The position numbers were made by a program, and so were the translations under genes. The notes under the pieces were generated by a model, which saw nothing but the letters and a program-made list of their open reading frames with translations, was not told the DNA's origin and did not search any database. 64,000 bases of DNA, taken from NCBI GenBank assembly GCA_963826715.1, contig CAWGYA010000008.1, positions 256,001 to 320,000 of the forward strand. Direction: 5' to 3'. This DNA comes from Candidatus Bathyarchaeota archaeon. Its GTDB lineage: Archaea; Thermoproteota; Bathyarchaeia; Bathyarchaeales; Bathycorpusculaceae. Shown here in pieces: positions 53,561 through 62,169 of the stretch; positions within the stretch are counted from its first letter, which is position 1; every line of letters starts with the position of its first letter.

Positions 53561-55146
53561 TAAATATTATTGGTTTTTGACAAAAAATAAGTCAATATTG
53601 TCCGTAAAAATTTGCCATTATTATATCAAAACTATCGAAAAAAGCTACAAAAAAAGGCGTCCTAACGAAGCGAATACGCATCAGTTATATGGCTTTTAAT
53701 AATGAGTATGTTTTACTATAAAATCCAATTCAGAAAACTGAGAGTTAAGGATCTTATAGCAATTCATAGTTCAAAGTAAAAAGAAAATCAAGAAAACGAA
53801 ATCGTGAGAGGGAGGGGCTTAATTTGAAACATGAAATTACTGAAAACCCGACCGAGGAAACGCTAGATCCCAACGATTGGGAATCTACGCGAAAACTTGG
53901 TCACAAAATGGTTGATGACATAGTAAATTATCTGAAAACTGTTCGAGAGCGCCCCGTTTGGCAAAAAATTCCCGACGAAGTCAAATCGCAGTTTACCACA
54001 CCGTTACCGATTGATCCCGAACAACCTGAAGAAGTATACAAGGAATTTGTGGAAAAAGTACTACCATACCCGATGGGAAATATCCATCCTCGCTTCTGGG
54101 GTTGGATACTTGGAACAGGAACCATCACGGGGGCTTACGCCGAGTTGTTAGCGGCTGCTATGAACACAAACAACGGTGGGGGTAATCATATTGCAAACTA
54201 CGTTGAAAAACAGGTAATTGATTGGATTAAGGAAATGCTTCAATTCACACCCTCAGCGAGCGGTGTATTAACTAGCGGCTGTTCAGCCTCAAATCTAATC
54301 GGGTTAACAGTTGCTCGAAATTCAAAAGCAGGTTTTAATATTCGCCAAAAAGGTAAATATTATTGGTTTTTGACAAAAAATAAGTCAATATTGTCCGTAA
54401 AAATTTGCCATTATTATATCAAAACTATCGAAAAAAGCTACAAAAAAAGGCGTCCTAACGAAGCGAATACGCATCAGTTATATGGCTTTTAATAATGAGT
54501 ATGTTTTACTATAAAATCCAATTCAGAAAACTGAGAGTTAAGGATCTTATAGCAATTCATAGTTCAAAGTAAAAAGAAAATCAAGAAAACGAAATCGTGA
54601 GAGGGAGGGGCTTAATTTGAAACATGAAATTACTGAAAACCCGACCGAGGAAACGCTAGATCCCAACGATTGGGAATCTACGCGAAAACTTGGTCACAAA
54701 ATGGTTGATGACATAGTAAATTATCTGAAAACTGTTCGAGAGCGCCCCGTTTGGCAAAAAATTCCCGACGAAGTCAAATCGCAGTTTACCACACCGTTAC
54801 CGATTGATCCCGAACAACCTGAAGAAGTATACAAGGAATTTGTGGAAAAAGTACTACCATACCCGATGGGAAATATCCATCCTCGCTTCTGGGGTTGGAT
54901 ACTTGGAACAGGAACCATCACGGGGGCTTACGCCGAGTTGTTAGCGGCTGCTATGAACACAAACAACGGTGGGGGTAATCATATTGCAAACTACGTTGAA
55001 AAACAGGTAATTGATTGGATTAAGGAAATGCTTCAATTCACACCCTCAGCGAGCGGTGTATTAACTAGCGGCTGTTCAGCCTCAAATCTAATCGGGTTAA
55101 CAGTTGCTCGAAATTCAAAAGCAGGTTTTAATATTCGCCAAAAAGG
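53561..55146 (+). repeat. 793-bp tandem duplication (53561-54353 and 54354-55146)
   Basis: Same promoter and 5' coding sequence offset by 793 nt; junction reads ...CCAAAAAGG|TAAATATTAT. Confidence 0.93.
53824..54492 (+). pseudogene. Truncated 5' copy of the PLP decarboxylase
   Basis: Identical to the N-terminus of 54617-56110 up to RQKG, then reads into duplicated promoter DNA. Confidence 0.8.
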
Positions 55147-56110
55147 GCTGCAAGATTCACAAAAAAAGATGGTGCTCTATGCTAGTGAAGAAGCCCATAG
55201 TTCAATCCAAAAAGCAATCGAGCTTATGGGACTTGGAAGCGAATCATTACGATTGTTACCAGTTAACGACCAATTCCAAATTGACATTTCAAAACTGAAA
55301 GAGTCTATTGCCAACGACCAGTCGAATGGTTTTTCACCTTTCTGTGTTGTTGGAGCAGCAGGCACAACAAATACAGGAAGTGTAGATGATCTTAACGCTT
55401 TAGCGATTGTTTGTAAAAAGGAAAAACTTTGGTTCCATGTTGATGGTGCGTTTGGTGCGTGGGCTCGCCTGTCGCAGAAGGCAAAAACTGCTGTTTCAGG
55501 AATTGAGCTAGCTGACTCGTTAGCTTTGGATTTACATAAGTGGATGTATATGCCATATGAAATTGGCTGCATTCTCGTACGAAATGAAAACCAGCATCGT
55601 AATGCCTTCTCTTTGACTCCAAATTACCTTTCGCACGGTAAAGGAGAACACGGTGTAGCTGGGGGTGATTTACCCTGGTTTAGCGATTACAGTTATGAAC
55701 TTTCTCGAGGATTTCGAGCTCTTAAAGCGTGGATGTCTATCAAGGAGAATGGGTCACGAAAGTACGCCCGAATAATTCAACAGAATATAGATCAAACTCT
55801 TTACTTGGGTGAACTCGTCAAAGCATCAACTGAATTATCACTTTCCGCGCCAATTACGCTAAATATTGTTTGCTTTCGGTTTGTCTCGCCAGATTTGGAT
55901 GAGGCGACCCTAGATAAAATTAACAAAATGATAGCGATTGATTTACAGGAACGTGGTGTTGCGGTTTTAACAGGCACTAATATCGGCGGCAAGTACGTTC
56001 TAAGGGTAGCTAATACTAATCATCGCAGCCGACGGAAAGACTTCGAAGTCTTAGTGAAAGAAGTATTGATTGTTGGAAAAAGATTAAAATTTTTTCATGA
56101 AATAACATGA
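54617..56110 (+). CDS. Group II PLP-dependent decarboxylase (aromatic-L-amino-acid/DAB-like)
   Basis: HPRFWG, AHSSIQKA, GTTNTGSVD, HVDGAFG and DLHKW motifs. Confidence 0.92.
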   Translation: MKHEITENPTEETLDPNDWESTRKLGHKMVDDIVNYLKTVRERPVWQKIPDEVKSQFTTPLPIDPEQPEEVYKEFVEKVLPYPMGNIHPRFWGWILGTGTITGAYAELLAAAMNTNNGGGNHIANYVEKQVIDWIKEMLQFTPSASGVLTSGCSASNLIGLTVARNSKAGFNIRQKGLQDSQKKMVLYASEEAHSSIQKAIELMGLGSESLRLLPVNDQFQIDISKLKESIANDQSNGFSPFCVVGAAGTTNTGSVDDLNALAIVCKKEKLWFHVDGAFGAWARLSQKAKTAVSGIELADSLALDLHKWMYMPYEIGCILVRNENQHRNAFSLTPNYLSHGKGEHGVAGGDLPWFSDYSYELSRGFRALKAWMSIKENGSRKYARIIQQNIDQTLYLGELVKASTELSLSAPITLNIVCFRFVSPDLDEATLDKINKMIAIDLQERGVAVLTGTNIGGKYVLRVANTNHRSRRKDFEVLVKEVLIVGKRLKFFHEIT

Positions 56111-56506
56111 TGCGATCAATAAGTGCAGGTTCGCTAATATCTTCTTGGAAAAGCACCAGCGAAACACGAGAATTTCACAAACAATTTTCTGTTATCATTC
56201 ATACAAAAAGATAATAGTGAAGCAAAGAAGGCGTTAATAGAGCCAGCTAAACTTAGAAAATGTTTAGGATAAAATCTTGGGCTTAACAGACCTTTTATTT
56301 GTTTAACAGGTTTCGTTTTTTGAGTTAAGAGGATATCGTCTTTCTTAGCAGACCTCATCATATAGGCATAACAGCCTAATATAATTGCTAAAAATAAAGT
56401 GGCAAATTTTCTAAACCACACTTCTCATGTATCAATAAAGGCAAACAAAAGTAGAAAAAATAGTGGGATTAGCTTTAAATCTTAAAACCTTACACAGGAA
56501 TTAGTT

Positions 56507-56875
56507 ATGAGAGTCTTACCTATTCTGGGCGGTATTGCAGCTACAGTGTTATTCTTTTTTGCAGTTATCTTTGTGCTTTCTTCTTCCTATGCGGGACTTA
56601 CTGTCCAAGCTGCACAAACAAGATTGCTTACAAGTGGTATCTTATTTATCATTGGCTTAGCAGTCGTAGTAGGCATCTACGCTGTGACACGCAAACCCAA
56701 AACGGTAATTCAACATCTTGAAGTTTCAGGGCAGATGCATGCAGCCCAAATCAAGTGTCCAAACTGCGGCGCATCCATCGATGCCAACCAAATTAAAATT
56801 GTTCAAGGTGTTCCCTTTGTTAAATGTCCTTATTGTGGGACTACATTTGAAGTTACTGAGGAGCCGAAATGGTAA
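56507..56875 (+). CDS. Two-TM protein with C-terminal zinc ribbon
   Basis: Two hydrophobic helices, then CPNC...CPYC; overlaps the start of the next gene. Confidence 0.8.
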   Translation: MRVLPILGGIAATVLFFFAVIFVLSSSYAGLTVQAAQTRLLTSGILFIIGLAVVVGIYAVTRKPKTVIQHLEVSGQMHAAQIKCPNCGASIDANQIKIVQGVPFVKCPYCGTTFEVTEEPKW

Positions 56876-58497
56876 AACGAACATTTTTGCTTGTTGCTTT
56901 TCTTGCCTTTGTGTTCGCTTTGTCAACTGTGAGCTTTGCTAGTGCCCAAATTGACTATTCAGTCGACCATGAGTGGGCTCAAATCTTCATTAACCAAGAT
57001 GGCACAATCGACTTAACGTATAATATCACTCTCAGTGTCAACTCAGGAATTATCCATGGTTTCTATGTTGGGCAGCCCAATGGTGATTTCACCATCGGTC
57101 AAGCTATGGACGAATTTGGCAATCAACTACAAATCTCAGATGCGAGCAGCGGCAGCGACTCTCGCATTGACGTAACCTTAAACCAACCCTTAACCCAAGG
57201 ACAATCAGTCTGGTTCCAAGTCACCACCAATGTGGGAAGCATGATAAGCAACGACACCAGCAACCCTGGTAATTATGGAATGCAATTCATCCCTCAGTGG
57301 ATTTCGGATGTACCCATCAGCGATGTGAGAGTACAAATTATACTCCCTGAAGGCGTAGGCATAGACAATGTGAAAACTACAACGAACTTCTACAATGCCT
57401 CCTCTGTAGTCGAAGGACACTTAGCGGTTTACTGGGAGAAGCCCCAGATTGGCGCTGGAGAACAATTCATGGTGGGCGTTTCTTTCCCAGCAAGTTTTCT
57501 GCCAAACTACACACCACCCAGCCCAGGAGTGTTCGACGCAGCAGGCGAAATCATCGCCACCGTGGGTGTAATCGCTGCTGTTCTTATATTCTTCGCCATC
57601 ATCATTTGGGCAATTCGCAAAAACAAAAGCAGCTATACCACACCGAAGATCAGCATGGAAACACTAGGAATCAAGCGGGGCCTAACAGCGGTTGAAGCCT
57701 CATACCTACTGGATCTCAAGCCACAGCAAATTGTTACCGAAATCCTCTACAGTCTACTACAGAAACGCGCGGTCTGGACCGTTGAAACTAAGCCCTCACT
57801 TAAACTAAAAGTGCTCCAACCGTATGAGAACAAAACTGGCACAGCCGAAAATCCACTTTATTACTACGAAATCGATTTCCTCCACTCACTCAACTCTGAC
57901 GGTAGTCTAAACGAAGAAAAACTAGCTCACACCATCATGTTTCTCCGTGATACTGTCGAGCAGAAGCTACAAGGTTATAATCGAAAAGAAACAGTAGATT
58001 ACTATCGAAAAATCATCGCGACCGCATGGGGGCAAGTAGAAAAGGCAGGCACCCCAGAACTAGCATCGAATGCCTATGACGAACAATTACTTTGGCTGAT
58101 GCTTGATCCCGCCCAGAAAAGTCACACTGAAACAGCGTTCAAGAATCGACCTTTCCAACCGAATCCACTTTGGTTCTGGTGGTGGTACGGCTACACAGTC
58201 TATCATCCCCACCCTATAGTTACACCAAACGTTAATTCACCATTACAATCTGGTAAACCACCGGCAATTCCAGGCGCCGATTTCGCAAATAACATTGCCA
58301 CCGCCGTTGAAAAAACATCGAACAACATTGTTGTCAATATCGAAAAATTCGCCAATGCCATTGTTCCACCACCACCAAAAGCTAGCCACACTCCCGCCCA
58401 CAAAGGAGCCGATTGTGTATGCGCCTGCGCAGCATGCGCGTGTGCCTGCGCCTGCGTGAGTTGTGCTTGTGCATGTGCAGGAGGAGGAGGGCACTAA
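56869..58497 (+). CDS. Single-pass membrane protein (DUF2207-like) with Cys-Ala repeat tail
   Basis: Signal peptide, beta-rich ectodomain, one TM helix, cytoplasmic domain ending CVCACAACACACACVSCACACAGGGGH. Confidence 0.8.
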   Translation: MVKRTFLLVAFLAFVFALSTVSFASAQIDYSVDHEWAQIFINQDGTIDLTYNITLSVNSGIIHGFYVGQPNGDFTIGQAMDEFGNQLQISDASSGSDSRIDVTLNQPLTQGQSVWFQVTTNVGSMISNDTSNPGNYGMQFIPQWISDVPISDVRVQIILPEGVGIDNVKTTTNFYNASSVVEGHLAVYWEKPQIGAGEQFMVGVSFPASFLPNYTPPSPGVFDAAGEIIATVGVIAAVLIFFAIIIWAIRKNKSSYTTPKISMETLGIKRGLTAVEASYLLDLKPQQIVTEILYSLLQKRAVWTVETKPSLKLKVLQPYENKTGTAENPLYYYEIDFLHSLNSDGSLNEEKLAHTIMFLRDTVEQKLQGYNRKETVDYYRKIIATAWGQVEKAGTPELASNAYDEQLLWLMLDPAQKSHTETAFKNRPFQPNPLWFWWWYGYTVYHPHPIVTPNVNSPLQSGKPPAIPGADFANNIATAVEKTSNNIVVNIEKFANAIVPPPPKASHTPAHKGADCVCACAACACACACVSCACACAGGGGH

Positions 58498-59808
58498 ATG
58501 AGTTTTCTGCGTAAACCCAAAATTCCTTCGGGGCGCTTCACCTACCGCGGAGAAGAAAAGTACGCAGGTATGTCGTTACAACTGCGCGTAGAACAAAACG
58601 GACAGGGTGTCATGGTCATAAACGCCAACACCGTCTTACACTTAAACCAAACCGCCACTGCCTACGCATACTACTTCATGTTAGGACTATCACAAATCGA
58701 GGTTTTAGGCAAAATCCACCGCATGTACCGGGTCAAAGTAGAGGATGCCAAAGCAGACTATGAGCGACTCGTTTACGCTATAAGCACTTTAGCACAAACA
58801 GAGAAAATCGACCCTGTCACTTTTCTTTCCATAGAGAAAGAGGAGCCCTTCTCATATCAATATTCAGCACCATTACGAATGGATATGGCATTAACGTTCC
58901 GCTGCCAAAACGACTGTGTACACTGTTACGCAGGAGGACCACATGAAAGCCCCGAGCTTAATACAACACAGTGGAAAACCGTCATTGATAAACTCAGCGA
59001 TATAGGCGTCTTTATTTTAACTTTTACAGGTGGCGAACCTACTCTTCGCACAGACCTCCCCGAACTCTTGCTTTATGCTCAAAACAAAGGCATGGTAACA
59101 GGACTTATCAGTAATGGTCGAAAACTCAAAGACAAAGCCTACGTAGAAGAGTTGGAAAAAGCAGGATTGGATTTTGTTCAAATCACCATAGAATCTCAAA
59201 AACCCGATGTTCATGATGCAATGACTGGAGCCGTGGGCAGTTGGATGGAAACTTTAGCAGGAATAAGGAACGCCGTGCAATCGCAGATTTTCGTTTCAAC
59301 TAACACTACTCTTAGCAAACACAACGCTGCCGACTTTCTAATCACCGTGGACTTCATCAAGAGCTTAGGTGTGGACGCCTTCGGCTGCAATAGCCTGATA
59401 TATAGCGGCAAAGCACTCATGGCAGGAGAAGAATTTGCACTATCAATTGATGAACTCAAAGCGTTACTGCCTTTGGTTCGCAACAAAGCACAACTGGTGG
59501 GGCTCAAGTTCCTTTGGTATACACCCACCCAATACTGCCAGCTCGATCCCGTTTCAATGGGGGTCGGAGTGAAAACCTGCACTGCGGCTATGATAAATGC
59601 CTGTGTCGGTCCCAACGGCGACATATACCCATGCCAAAGCTACTTTGAAAGCCTCGGCAATATTCTCACTGATTCCTGGGGCAAAATCTGGCATAGCCCC
59701 TTAGCTGAAAAGTTAAGGAATAGAGAATTCATAGAGGAAAAATGCAAAAACTGCGGGGAACTGTCGGTTTGCGGTGGAGGATGCCCCTTGGAGCTGCAGA
59801 ACAAATAA
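58498..59808 (+). CDS. Radical SAM/SPASM protein with N-terminal PqqD/RRE-like domain
   Basis: LHLNQTA RRE-like motif; CQNDCVHCY; TGGEP; SPASM C...GDIYPC...CKNC....CGGGC. Confidence 0.9.
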   Translation: MSFLRKPKIPSGRFTYRGEEKYAGMSLQLRVEQNGQGVMVINANTVLHLNQTATAYAYYFMLGLSQIEVLGKIHRMYRVKVEDAKADYERLVYAISTLAQTEKIDPVTFLSIEKEEPFSYQYSAPLRMDMALTFRCQNDCVHCYAGGPHESPELNTTQWKTVIDKLSDIGVFILTFTGGEPTLRTDLPELLLYAQNKGMVTGLISNGRKLKDKAYVEELEKAGLDFVQITIESQKPDVHDAMTGAVGSWMETLAGIRNAVQSQIFVSTNTTLSKHNAADFLITVDFIKSLGVDAFGCNSLIYSGKALMAGEEFALSIDELKALLPLVRNKAQLVGLKFLWYTPTQYCQLDPVSMGVGVKTCTAAMINACVGPNGDIYPCQSYFESLGNILTDSWGKIWHSPLAEKLRNREFIEEKCKNCGELSVCGGGCPLELQNK

Positions 59809-59902
59809 AGTGACATCCCGTATTTTTAGGGCATTATTTATCTTTAACCAATCCAACATTCTGTGATGAAACACACGATTCCATTTTTGCAGGTTTAGAG
59901 AT

Positions 59903-61138
59903 ATGGCTCAAACAGAAAAGCCAAGGTTGGTTGTATTCGATGTAGAGGGAGTGCTGATTCCCAAAAATCGCTTTCTCTTCGAAGTCGGCAAAACTTTGGG
60001 GCTTCTCCAACTGATTAAGCTTTTTTTCTTTGGTTTTCTCTACGAAGCAGGTATTCTTAAACTGGAGCCGGCGCTCAAACATATCTTTGCAGGGTTACAA
60101 TGCTTAGAACTTAATGTGATGTTGGAAATTTTCGACAAAATACCCGCCACACCTTACTTGCAAAGTCTTTGTGCTCAACTTAAAGCCCGAAACTGCAAAG
60201 TCGCTATTATTAGCTCAGGTATCCCAACAATCGCCATTGAGAAGCTATCTCTAACACTTTGCGCCGATTACGCATACGGAATAGATGTCGGCGTTAAAGA
60301 TGGTCGGTTAACCGGCGAGATCGGAGGTGACGCCATCACAGGGAACGGGAAACTAAAAATTCTGCGTGAAATTCTCAGAAAAGAAGATCTCACACCAAAA
60401 GATTGTATAATAGTGGCGGATGATCGAAACAACCGATGCATCTTTCTACCTCAGATGCTCAAAATCGGATTCAACCCCGATTTTATCATCCGGGTTAAAG
60501 CAGACAGGGTTGTAAATGGAAAATTGTCATCGATTCTACCAATCATTGATGGCAAAAAACATCAGTACAGCTTCCCGACGGTAAACGATTTCATACGCGA
60601 AGACATCCATGCCGCGGGCTTTTTTATGCCTGTCATAGCTGGGTTAGTAGGAGTTCCGTTGGTTGCATCGCTAATCATTTTCATTGCCATTCTCTACACA
60701 GCCTCTGAACTTTCCCGCTTAGAAGGACGTCACTTGCCAGTCATTTCTTCCATAACGCGTCATGCCGCCTCACAATCAGAACTATATGGATTCGCCGCTG
60801 CACCACTGTATTTCGCCATCGGAATAGCAGCAACTTTACTACTATTCCCCGGCAATGTGGGCGGCGCAGCAATAGCCATGTTCTGCTTGGGCGACAGCGC
60901 AGCTTCGCTCTTCGGTGGTTTATTCACTACTTCATTGCCCTTTAACAAGGGAAAAACTATAGAGGGCACGTTTGCAGGATTCTTCTTTGCTTTTCTAGCA
61001 GGAACCTTCTTTGTTTCACCTATTTACGCCTTGGTTGGCGCCGCAATTGCCATGACCATTGAGGTTCTGCCGCTTCCTATCAATGACAACGTGTTAATTC
61101 CAATTTTCACAGCTTTAGCGTTAACACTAATCATTTAA
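59903..61138 (+). CDS. HAD (SerB-like) domain fused to dolichol/phytol kinase-like membrane domain
   Basis: VVFDVEGVL, ISSG, LTGEI and VADDRNN in the N-terminal half; GDSAASLFG, KGKTIEG and NDNVLIP in the C-terminal half. Confidence 0.8.
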   Translation: MAQTEKPRLVVFDVEGVLIPKNRFLFEVGKTLGLLQLIKLFFFGFLYEAGILKLEPALKHIFAGLQCLELNVMLEIFDKIPATPYLQSLCAQLKARNCKVAIISSGIPTIAIEKLSLTLCADYAYGIDVGVKDGRLTGEIGGDAITGNGKLKILREILRKEDLTPKDCIIVADDRNNRCIFLPQMLKIGFNPDFIIRVKADRVVNGKLSSILPIIDGKKHQYSFPTVNDFIREDIHAAGFFMPVIAGLVGVPLVASLIIFIAILYTASELSRLEGRHLPVISSITRHAASQSELYGFAAAPLYFAIGIAATLLLFPGNVGGAAIAMFCLGDSAASLFGGLFTTSLPFNKGKTIEGTFAGFFFAFLAGTFFVSPIYALVGAAIAMTIEVLPLPINDNVLIPIFTALALTLII

Positions 61139-61227: not shown

Positions 61228-61482
61228 CTATTTTTTGGTCTGCGACACAATCAAAGCGAGTTTCTGCTGGTGACCAAGTTTTTTTATTGCGCGTTCCCGC
61301 TTCATAGCTGCACTCCGAGTGCCAAAAAGTTCTACATAGGCGATTTTTTGAGGTTTATGGGATTTAGTGTATTTAGCTCCTTTGCCATTATGGTGCTGCC
61401 GCGTACGCTCTTCGAGGTTATTGGTGTATCCAGTATAGAAGCTTCCATCTGTGCACTGTAGAATGTAAACATAAAAAGACAT
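61228..61482 (-). CDS. GIY-YIG nuclease (UPF0213)
   Basis: YVYILQCTDGSFYTGYT, GKGAKYT and ERAIK motifs. Confidence 0.92.
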   Translation of the reverse strand: MSFYVYILQCTDGSFYTGYTNNLEERTRQHHNGKGAKYTKSHKPQKIAYVELFGTRSAAMKRERAIKKLGHQQKLALIVSQTKK

Positions 61483-62169
61483 CTATACTGGTGGCTCCTG
61501 AAAATCAGCTGTTAAGCAATCATAAACAACACCTTTCTGTAATGCTCGCTTAAGGTAAACTTCAGGTTCAATTTCCTGCGTGGAGCCGTGGTCTACGTCG
61601 ATTATGTAAATCGTTTGTATATGGGCACTTCGAATTTCTTCAAGAGTAACTGGAGGTTTTCGGTAGAATGCGTCACAGAGAGCTTTTACTTGCTCAAGTT
61701 CAAGGGCGCTTCTGCAGTTGGGGTCTTTGGCGAAGAGACGGGGAAAAGGCAGAATATAATGCGATGGCACACCCAACGCGAATTTGGTGGCGAAGCTGCT
61801 GTAGCGGACAATTTTGCTTGCTAACCGCGCAGAAGTGTAGGTTAGAGGAGATAATGCATTTTCGGGGGGAATGAATCCTGTTTCGATTTCTACAACAAGA
61901 TTACCTGAGGAGTTGATACCATATAAATCACAGTTTAAAATTTCGTTGAGGGAATACTCCAGCTGGATATCATACCCTTTTTCTATGAGATGCTTTGCGC
62001 ATACAAGTTCCATCACTGAATGGTTAATTTTCACGATGTTTTCCCGTTGCAGTTTGATGAGCCGATCTTTCAGAATATTAAGTTTGTTTTCAACGACGGG
62101 TTCAACCCCACTGGCTAACCTATCTAAAAGAAAAGTAAGATCCCGTTCAAATTTCTGCCGATTACTCAT
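61483..62169 (-). CDS. Hypothetical protein, PD-(D/E)xK-like
   Basis: CDLY...VVEIETG pattern. Confidence 0.65.
   Translation of the reverse strand: MSNRQKFERDLTFLLDRLASGVEPVVENKLNILKDRLIKLQRENIVKINHSVMELVCAKHLIEKGYDIQLEYSLNEILNCDLYGINSSGNLVVEIETGFIPPENALSPLTYTSARLASKIVRYSSFATKFALGVPSHYILPFPRLFAKDPNCRSALELEQVKALCDAFYRKPPVTLEEIRSAHIQTIYIIDVDHGSTQEIEPEVYLKRALQKGVVYDCLTADFQEPPV

Follow-up and report, generated by a model that had tools for sequence, protein, structure and literature searches.

A membrane protein with a (Cys-Ala)n tail and an adjoining RRE-radical SAM-SPASM enzyme form a candidate substrate–enzyme pair in Bathyarchaeia

To our knowledge, the radical S-adenosylmethionine (SAM) chemistry typical of peptides that ribosomes make and that are then modified post-translationally (RiPPs) has nearly always been studied on small exported peptides, and the few protein cases are QhpC, the sulfatases and CrpA. 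The thioether links of QhpC are formed by QhpD, and anSME turns Cys into formylglycine. In the archaeon Methanococcus voltae, CrpC, an enzyme with a RiPP recognition element (RRE), a radical SAM core and a SPASM domain, forms ranthionine links in CrpA, a Cys-rich protein of 28.8 kDa (PMC13692751, 2026). Here, we describe a three-gene cassette found in a stretch of 64,000 nt of DNA from a Candidatus Bathyarchaeota archaeon (assembly GCA_963826715.1, contig CAWGYA010000008.1, positions 256,001 to 320,000 of the forward strand; the whole stretch is hereafter called the window). The cassette encodes a small zinc-ribbon protein (ZnR), a membrane protein ending in a (Cys-Ala)n tail (MEM) and an RRE-radical SAM-SPASM enzyme. 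By analogy with related maturases, we lean towards the view that this enzyme modifies the Cys-Ala tail. The components of the cassette are the following:

56507..56875, plus strand: ZnR, 122 aa, two transmembrane (TM) helices followed by a C4 zinc ribbon (open reading frame (ORF), hydropathy, TIGR02098)
56869..58497, plus strand: MEM, 542 aa, receptor-like membrane protein (ORF; AlphaFold2 (AF2) model with a mean predicted local distance difference test score (pLDDT) of 81.7)
58414..58494, plus strand: Cys-Ala tail, MEM residues 516-542, CVCAC-AA-CACACAC-VS-CACACA-GGGGH, its 10 Cys grouped as 3, 4 and 3
58498..59808, plus strand: RRE-radical SAM-SPASM enzyme, 436 aa (Pfam, AF2)

The CrpC/CrpA system resembles this locus in that the enzyme gene adjoins a gene for a protein with C-terminal Cys repeats, and in that a whole protein is the substrate there and the proposed substrate here (PMC13692751). 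RiPP-like chemistry on a whole protein therefore has a precedent in CrpC/CrpA, which complicates the novelty of the modification proposed here. CrpA differs from MEM in being soluble; it has ten C-x-x-Q/D repeats of 17 residues each and a leader-like region at its N-terminus (PMC13692751), whereas the proposed target here is a 27-residue (Cys-Ala)n tail that ends a 542-aa membrane protein with a conserved 2-TM ZnR partner. Because it contains 10 Cys in 542 residues, MEM would fail the screen of that article, which asked for at least 5% Cys in proteins of more than 250 aa (PMC13692751). The three-part architecture and the Cys motifs of the enzyme are also those of SkfB (6efn), CteB (5wgg/5why), AlbA, PapB and SuiB (5v1q). 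These enzymes act on free leader-core peptides of some tens of residues, which are exported as natural products, whereas in the cassette it is a membrane protein that carries the candidate core. QhpD and anSME, like the enzyme as we see it, are SPASM radical SAM enzymes that alter Cys in proteins that stay functional. However, they act on enzymes or subunits that are soluble and periplasmic, that offer one to a few target Cys and that have neither a repeat tail nor a membrane anchor, and anSME has no RRE, unlike the enzyme here.

Read directly from the ORF list, the three plus-strand ORFs are packed in the order ZnR–MEM–enzyme. ZnR and MEM share 7 nt of coding sequence (ATGGTAA), and the TAA stop of MEM abuts the ATG of the enzyme as TAAATG, the junction reading ...gggcacTAAATGagt. 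The intergenic gaps on the two sides of the trio measure 85 nt and 94 nt. No free small precursor ORF was found in these two gaps, and the small Cys-containing ORFs of the region 55900-60200 all lie within annotated genes. The precursor peptide that accompanies RRE-fused radical SAM/SPASM maturases is not found here, and only the tail of the 542-aa MEM is a candidate that is both conserved and rich in Cys. A preliminary description of the stretch had proposed a unit of three overlapping or abutting genes, made of a 2-TM zinc-ribbon protein, a 542-aa single-pass membrane protein and a radical SAM enzyme, without a free precursor nearby. Each of these proposals is borne out, by the ORF coordinates and the TAAATG junction for the unit, by hydropathy together with the zinc-finger model (ZnR) or the AF2 model (MEM) for the two membrane proteins, and by the small Cys ORFs and the gap lengths for the precursor. 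Two further features were read from the sequence:

56474..56480, plus strand: TATA-box-like TTTAAAT, 27-33 nt 5' of the ZnR start
59823..59827, plus strand: T5 run, 15 nt past the stop codon of the enzyme

The first may serve as an archaeal promoter, in which case the operon would be leaderless, and the second may be an archaeal terminator at its end, and together they are compatible with a three-gene archaeal operon.

MEM ends in CVCACAACACACACVSCACACAGGGGH, the tail itself being CVCACAACACACACVSCACAC-AGGGGH. The density of 10 Cys per 21 residues (58414-58476) and the varied codons had both been pointed out in the preliminary description, and translation confirms the first. The tail gene of the window mixes its codons (TGT/TGC for Cys; GCC/GCA/GCG/GCT for Ala), and across 69 related loci TGT as well as TGC occurs at every Cys position and all four GCN codons occur at every Ala position. 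Because synonymous codons vary freely, the repeat is kept at the protein level and is not a DNA microsatellite; this codon diversity, in the window and across the 69 loci, rules out DNA slippage as the source of the repeat, as had been expected. The 69 loci were chosen by a regular expression that fixes the Cys positions (25-residue form), so that the Cys invariance among them is partly made by the selection, and the unbiased tail counts are those of 120 listed homologues and of a looser comparison of loci. In the former, the tail is retained in 120 out of 120 close homologues (about 70-78% overall identity), with 10 Cys in 112 of them and 9 Cys in 8. The latter adds 7 archaeal-type loci with a varied tail, of which 4 have Ser or Gly in place of the first Cys; the other varied archaeal-type tails lack one CA unit (L005), carry D in place of V (L068) or contain a frameshift (L048). 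Judged from these sequences, selection at the protein level acts strongly on the tail.

A HMMER search, run exhaustively over 1.84 billion representatives, placed the relatives of MEM in 592 clusters at 50% identity. Among the 150 best representatives at this level, 110 have CACACA[GS]G as their terminal motif. As for the remaining 40, 34 have fewer than 500 aa, 3 have a match confined to the ectodomain, 1 has a single change in the motif and 2 carry the block internally. More distant MEM proteins (24-35% identity) end in another form of the tail, a Gly/Ser-rich linker followed by (CA)4-G-(CA)3-GGGR; where named, the members with this form belong to Chloroflexota/Anaerolineae and Zixibacteria. 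The last block of the tail, CACACAGGG, is common to these bacterial proteins with 24-35% identity, and in the 2.64-Mb genome of the window this tail is the only site that encodes it. In the AF2 model, the tail is disordered (pLDDT about 33) and contains no helix.

Among 71 genome loci, 69 have the enzyme gene immediately downstream of MEM, and the two misses are contig ends. ZnR is found upstream of MEM in 68 of these loci; for the three others, the MEM match is at the start of the contig in two and the sequence just upstream of the tail is masked as X in one. The genes found upstream of the cassette in the window are present in 0 of the 71 loci, and the downstream block (genes for a HAD protein, a GIY-YIG-like protein and a 228-aa protein) is gone in L059, L061 and L062, where the trio remains. 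Chance synteny is rejected, since both flanks vary around a constant trio. Among 151 evenly sampled Bathyarchaeia genomes, with presence of the enzyme defined as a match at E<=1e-40, MEM was found in 32 genomes, the enzyme match in 32, and the two genes adjacent on one contig in 30. In the one-sided genomes G136, G139 and G003, the gene runs into a contig end, and G001 contains only a paralogue with 32% identity. Presence of the cassette is mixed within at least 7 families of Bathyarchaeia, and within the same genus it is present in only 1 out of 4 other genomes. The MEM–enzyme pair has therefore been gained or lost together repeatedly, and the co-occurrence counts given above, which include relatives that are not independent, overstate the number of independent events.

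The trio recurs on bacterial metagenome contigs, where MEM shares 27-31% identity with that of the window and has a (CA)4G(CA)3GGGR tail. Among 20 metagenome loci collected by the tail motif, an orthologue of the enzyme follows MEM in 15 (12 at 40-72% identity and 3 short partial matches), 2 end at MEM, and ZnR is upstream in 10. In two loci another gene lies between MEM and the enzyme, encoding a histidine kinase in L079 and an IS200 transposase in L080. The co-occurrence of tail and enzyme, put forward as a check in the preliminary description, is found in the sampled lineage and in most of the distant bacterial loci, and fails on three high-GC contigs where the tail has no neighbouring enzyme.

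The enzyme matches the Pfam models Radical_SAM (E 3.7e-22) and SPASM (E 1.2e-10), and its AF2 model has a pLDDT of 84.5 and a predicted template modelling score of 0.87. Three domains follow each other along the chain:

58531..58797, plus strand: RRE (PqqD-like winged helix), residues 12-100, four strands then three helices, pLDDT 81-91
58876..59520, plus strand: radical SAM core, residues 127-341, with C136-x3-C140-x2-C143
59536..59784, plus strand: SPASM, residues 347-429, with C347, C361-x12-G374-x4-C379 and C416-x2-C419-x5-C425-x3-C429

The CxxxCxxC motif (C136, C140 and C143 are invariant in the alignment) and the Cys motifs of SPASM are conserved in 19 out of 19 orthologues. The AF2 model and the fold matches also agree with a radical SAM core of the partial TIM barrel kind. 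The PqqD fold proposed earlier for the N-terminus is supported by the AF2 model and by the distant orthologues, 5 out of 6 of which exceed the gathering score of Pfam PqqD (23.6-28.5 bits vs. 23.4); at E<=1, the model is found in 13 of the 19 aligned orthologues. Against sequences of the Protein Data Bank (PDB), the profile of the enzyme retrieves SkfB (E 1.2e-28), followed by PqqE, SuiB and CteB. The best Foldseek matches are SkfB (8.5e-18), SuiB (1.5e-16) and CteB (1.2e-15), and the SuiB and CteB alignments cover 441-470 columns, i.e. approximately the whole chain; anSME (4k36-4k39) is also among the fold matches (E about 1.5e-11). Among NCBIfam models, NirJ2 scores best (134.5 bits vs. a cut-off of 500), and other scores are 88.7 vs. 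300 for SkfB, 78.6 vs. 850 for AlbA, 74.2 vs. 400 for ACGX and 111.8 for WgkB, also below its cut-off. The SkfB and AlbA models extend over the N-terminal domain of the enzyme as well. The enzyme is below the cut-off of every model among the best 25 of 63 NCBIfam matches, and so are the bacterial orthologues. TIGR04463, the CrpC family, is not among these best 25 of 63 matches, so its score is at most 58.5 bits, that of the 25th. Because these scores are far below the curated cut-offs, we regard the enzyme as a separate clade. Reading the cassette as a defence system was rejected, as PADLOC gave only generic viperin-type matches to the radical SAM core of the enzyme and none for ZnR or MEM.

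As judged from hydropathy and the AF2 model, MEM begins with a signal-like segment and an extracellular beta-sandwich, crosses the membrane by one TM helix, continues into a helical domain in the cytoplasm and ends in the Cys-Ala tail. Its parts are located as follows:

56947..57495, plus strand: ectodomain, residues 27-209, beta-sandwich, pLDDT mostly >90
57535..57621, plus strand: TM helix, residues 223-251, followed by RKNK (hydropathy, AF2)
57676..58188, plus strand: cytoplasmic domain, residues 270-440, a winged-helix-like start and then a helical bundle, pLDDT about 90 or above
58273..58362, plus strand: two conserved amphipathic helices, residues 469-498, before a Pro-rich linker, pLDDT 72-80

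The ectodomain resembles ribophorin I/OST1 (VIA-align Z 16.9, root-mean-square deviation (rmsd) 2.6 over 177 residues to 6s7o_E) and the N-domains of M1 aminopeptidases (LTA4H and ERAP1, VIA-align Z 13-14), and Foldseek matches it to 8pn9_E (E 5.5e-12). Because RKNK follows the TM helix, the C-terminal half of MEM is predicted to be cytoplasmic by the positive-inside rule. A cytoplasmic tail, as previously proposed, fits this topology, and the tail itself scores as hydrophobic (Kyte-Doolittle 2.25 over residues 512-540), so that we keep this location as probable and not as certain. For the cytoplasmic domain, no confident structural relative was found in the whole-model searches, which are dominated by the ectodomain; GOLPH3 (3kn1_A; Z 6.6, rmsd 4.2, 155 residues) was rejected as too weak. 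An Atlas feature search of MEM gave a DUF2207_C cluster (0.88), which we take as no more than a lead. Between this domain and residues 469-498, the AF2 model has an aromatic low-confidence stretch, WFWWWYGY. In the two helices of residues 469-498, A473 is nearly invariant and a PGxDFA...F...P.P pattern is conserved across archaea and bacteria, which makes them a candidate leader-like recognition segment.

The layout of MEM (signal, extracellular beta-sandwich, TM helix, cytoplasmic part) is shared by DUF2207 proteins, and MEM is below the threshold of PF09972, the DUF2207 N-domain (E 4.5e-4; 20.9 bits vs. a cut-off of 24.4). Precomputed PF09972 matches are recorded on many close homologues of MEM. 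Among 8 more distant members of the family scanned with Pfam, 7 had no match and P0315 reached 23.9 bits with PF09972, again below 24.4. We found no Pfam match of MEM to PF20990, the DUF2207 C-domain, at E<=0.01, no NCBIfam match to MEM even at E<=10, and nothing below E 0.2 with the MEM profile among PDB sequences. TIGR04117 (CXXX repeat radical SAM target) and TIGR04222 did not match MEM, its cytoplasmic half, P0289 or the L081 protein at E<=10.

ZnR has hydrophobic segments at residues 1-34 and 36-64 and matches the MJ0042-type zinc finger TIGR02098 above its cut-off (28.7 bits vs. 20.9), with C84, C87, C107 and C110 as the Cys of the ribbon. These four Cys, G75 and a C-terminal EEPKW (56858-56872) are invariant in 9 out of 9 aligned orthologues from archaea and bacteria. 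The ribbon, in the C-terminal part of the protein, is probably cytoplasmic. Judging from positive-inside residues, the conserved parts of all three products would lie on this side of the membrane.

From these observations, we infer an operon-like cassette that would act at the inner face of the membrane. ZnR and MEM would be made together, since their genes overlap, with both C-terminal parts in the cytoplasm. The conserved helical segment, the flexible linker and the tail of MEM are arranged much like a leader and a core. The enzyme would dock through its RRE on a conserved segment of MEM, for which residues 469-498 are the candidate, and would process the flexible (Cys-Ala)n tail repeatedly. 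By analogy with SkfB, CteB and CrpC/CrpA, thioether links are the most likely chemistry: a 5'-deoxyadenosyl radical would take a hydrogen from a neighbouring residue (C-alpha or C-beta of Ala), and a Cys thiolate at an auxiliary cluster would attack to give a sactionine- or ranthionine-type thioether. A floppy tail would thus become a rigid cross-linked element, which may be active towards metals or in redox reactions, or may act as a structural plug, as part of a protein with a ligand-binding-like ectodomain. A further-reaching version is tentative and, in our opinion, rather doubtful: the cassette would build a protein-derived cofactor, a ladder of thioethers or other modifications on the tail of MEM, with the assistance of ZnR and, in some lineages, of a methyltransferase. 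This cofactor, a rigid structure on the inner side of the membrane, would be metal- or redox-active and couple sensing by the ribophorin-like ectodomain to chemistry inside the cell.

Several points weigh against a modification of the tail by this enzyme, besides the non-independence of the co-occurrence counts. The high-GC metagenome contigs L081, L083 and L089 keep the tail, in the form (CA)3-G-(CA)4-GGGR, with no enzyme or ZnR gene nearby, each holding at least 2.3 kb downstream; at this contig-level view, the tail can persist without a neighbouring enzyme. In P0265 and P0278, the Cys-Ala block is internal and about 90 more residues come after it, which complicates this reading. The enzyme of the window has no Pfam PqqD match in its own sequence, and it lacks the distal C-terminal Cys found in most archaeal homologues, its chain ending 7 residues past C429; the bacterial orthologues likewise lack this final distal SPASM Cys. 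The invariant EEPKW end of ZnR offers the enzyme another target. The assignment of the chemistry comes by analogy, and we know of no thioether donor/acceptor pattern made of adjacent Cys/Ala pairs. Moreover, the tail resembles a metallothionein-type CxC ligand set and could work unmodified. A complex prediction for the enzyme with MEM residues 455-542, three 4Fe-4S clusters and SAM scored 0.01 vs. a mark of 0.32, in a run without controls, and weighs neither way. Of the RiPP-like modification suggested in the preliminary description, the genetic linkage, the RRE and the lack of a precursor have thus held up, while the modification itself stays at the level of a probable reading and the three tail contigs without an enzyme speak against it.

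It is unlikely, in our view, that the tail is an unmodified binding site for metal or Fe-S, with the enzyme linked to it in some other manner. The alternating Cys come in groups of 3-4 with a turn-like G, VS or AA in between, and in an extended strand their thiols would lie on one face; the three contigs that keep the tail without a neighbouring enzyme also fit such a site. According to the article, CrpA, itself the target of a radical SAM enzyme, is also a suspected metal binder (PMC13692751). The link with the enzyme may then be a membrane tether through the RRE, an exchange of cluster or metal via the tail, or another substrate such as a lipid or a small molecule. However, the RRE, a domain that binds peptides, is present in full in the enzyme, its closest solved relatives all modify peptides, and strict adjacency with co-loss exceeds what a loose functional link needs. 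Besides, this reading does not exclude a modification, as a modified tail could still bind metal.

We consider it quite improbable that ZnR is the true substrate, its EEPKW taking for example a cross-link of the Lys-Trp type, with MEM as a partner or scaffold. EEPKW is invariant (9 out of 9) also where the ZnR and MEM genes do not overlap, ZnR and the enzyme are both missing from the three tail-only contigs, SuiB, which makes Lys-Trp cross-links, is among the closest structures, and the WgkB model reaches 111.8 bits, if below its cut-off. Nevertheless, a 122-aa membrane protein with a folded zinc ribbon would be an odd precursor, an adjacent K-W pair leaves little room for a macrocycle, the likeness to SuiB is no stronger than that to the thioether enzymes SkfB and CteB, and the extreme conservation of the Cys-Ala tail would be left unexplained. 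Finally, a hydrophobic anchor unrelated to the enzyme, embedded in the membrane or lipidated (a second membrane segment, or S-acylation), is scarcely credible: the hydropathy of residues 512-540 (2.25) and the preceding WFWWWYGY, which could sit at the membrane interface, would suit it, but the AF2 model has no helix in the tail, the bacterial form has 16 hydrophobic residues between long Gly/Ser runs and is unable to span a bilayer as a helix because these are too few, and neither the invariance of Cys, as opposed to any hydrophobic residue, nor the co-inheritance with the enzyme would be explained.

On the three contigs without an enzyme, the tail genes (L081:1-2319, L083:3-2003 and L089:197-2371) look tandem, an upstream ORF or frame ending in the same tail. 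A Methyltransf_11 gene comes directly after the tail gene in L081, L083 and L089. These methyltransferases share 43-55% identity with each other and about 33% with one that follows the enzyme in L072; because these copies are related, the methyltransferase looks like a fourth, optional component. No orthologue of it was found in the genome of the window, where only a generic match of 101 residues was obtained (E 7e-8). A fusion of MEM with an RRE in P0278 was rejected, its extension of about 90 aa having an hhalign probability of 0.6% against the enzyme. A second radical SAM paralogue is present a few kb downstream of the cassette in three bacterial loci (L073:4808-6190, L075:9831-11258 and L080:5110-6324). 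These paralogues are about 31-33% identical to the enzyme of the window and none has a SPASM match; the copy of L073 has a PqqD match. A C_GCAxxG_C_C protein adjoins the second paralogue in L073 and L075, and L073 also has an M28 peptidase.

Around the cassette, the window contains on its upstream side an exact tandem duplication of 793 bp (53561-54353 = 54354-55146, 100% identity). It repeats the 5' part of a pyridoxal phosphate-dependent decarboxylase gene (54617-56110; Pyridoxal_deC E 6.9e-63), with a truncated ORF at 53824-54492, and could be a very recent event or an assembly artefact. Downstream, a gene at 59903-61138 encodes a protein of 411 aa that starts with a HAD/SerB-like phosphatase domain (TIGR00338 E 3.4e-24, below cut-off) and is hydrophobic in its C-terminal half. 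This gene follows the cassette in most Bathyarchaeia loci, and we did not count it in the system because it is lost in L059, L061 and L062. Two other ORFs, at 61228-61482 and 61483-62169 (minus strand), are syntenic with the cassette in most Bathyarchaeia loci: the first, of 84 aa, has a product that we take from its sequence to be GIY-YIG-like, and the second encodes a 228-aa protein with no Pfam or NCBIfam match.

Generic domains aside, no name or specific family model was found for ZnR, MEM or the enzyme in Pfam and NCBIfam, and our literature searches, which did not extend to the supplements of PMC13692751, found no paper on the tail motif or the cassette. The scans and these searches turned up no characterised family, which, according to the preliminary description, would have removed the novelty. 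The family of MEM is large, with its 592 clusters at 50% identity, and spans Bathyarchaeia, Chloroflexota and Zixibacteria. The cassette offers a testable substrate–enzyme pair, in which a nearly invariant core of 16-25 residues and a candidate recognition segment belong to the same polypeptide. If the enzyme does modify the tail, the reach of RiPP-type radical SAM chemistry would widen to include a membrane protein's cytoplasmic tail. Should the modified tail be a site for metal or redox chemistry, it would bear on the handling of metals or signals by abundant uncultured anaerobes of peat and sediment. If the more doubtful cofactor proposal is true, the cassette would represent a new class of post-translational modification in anaerobic archaea and bacteria.

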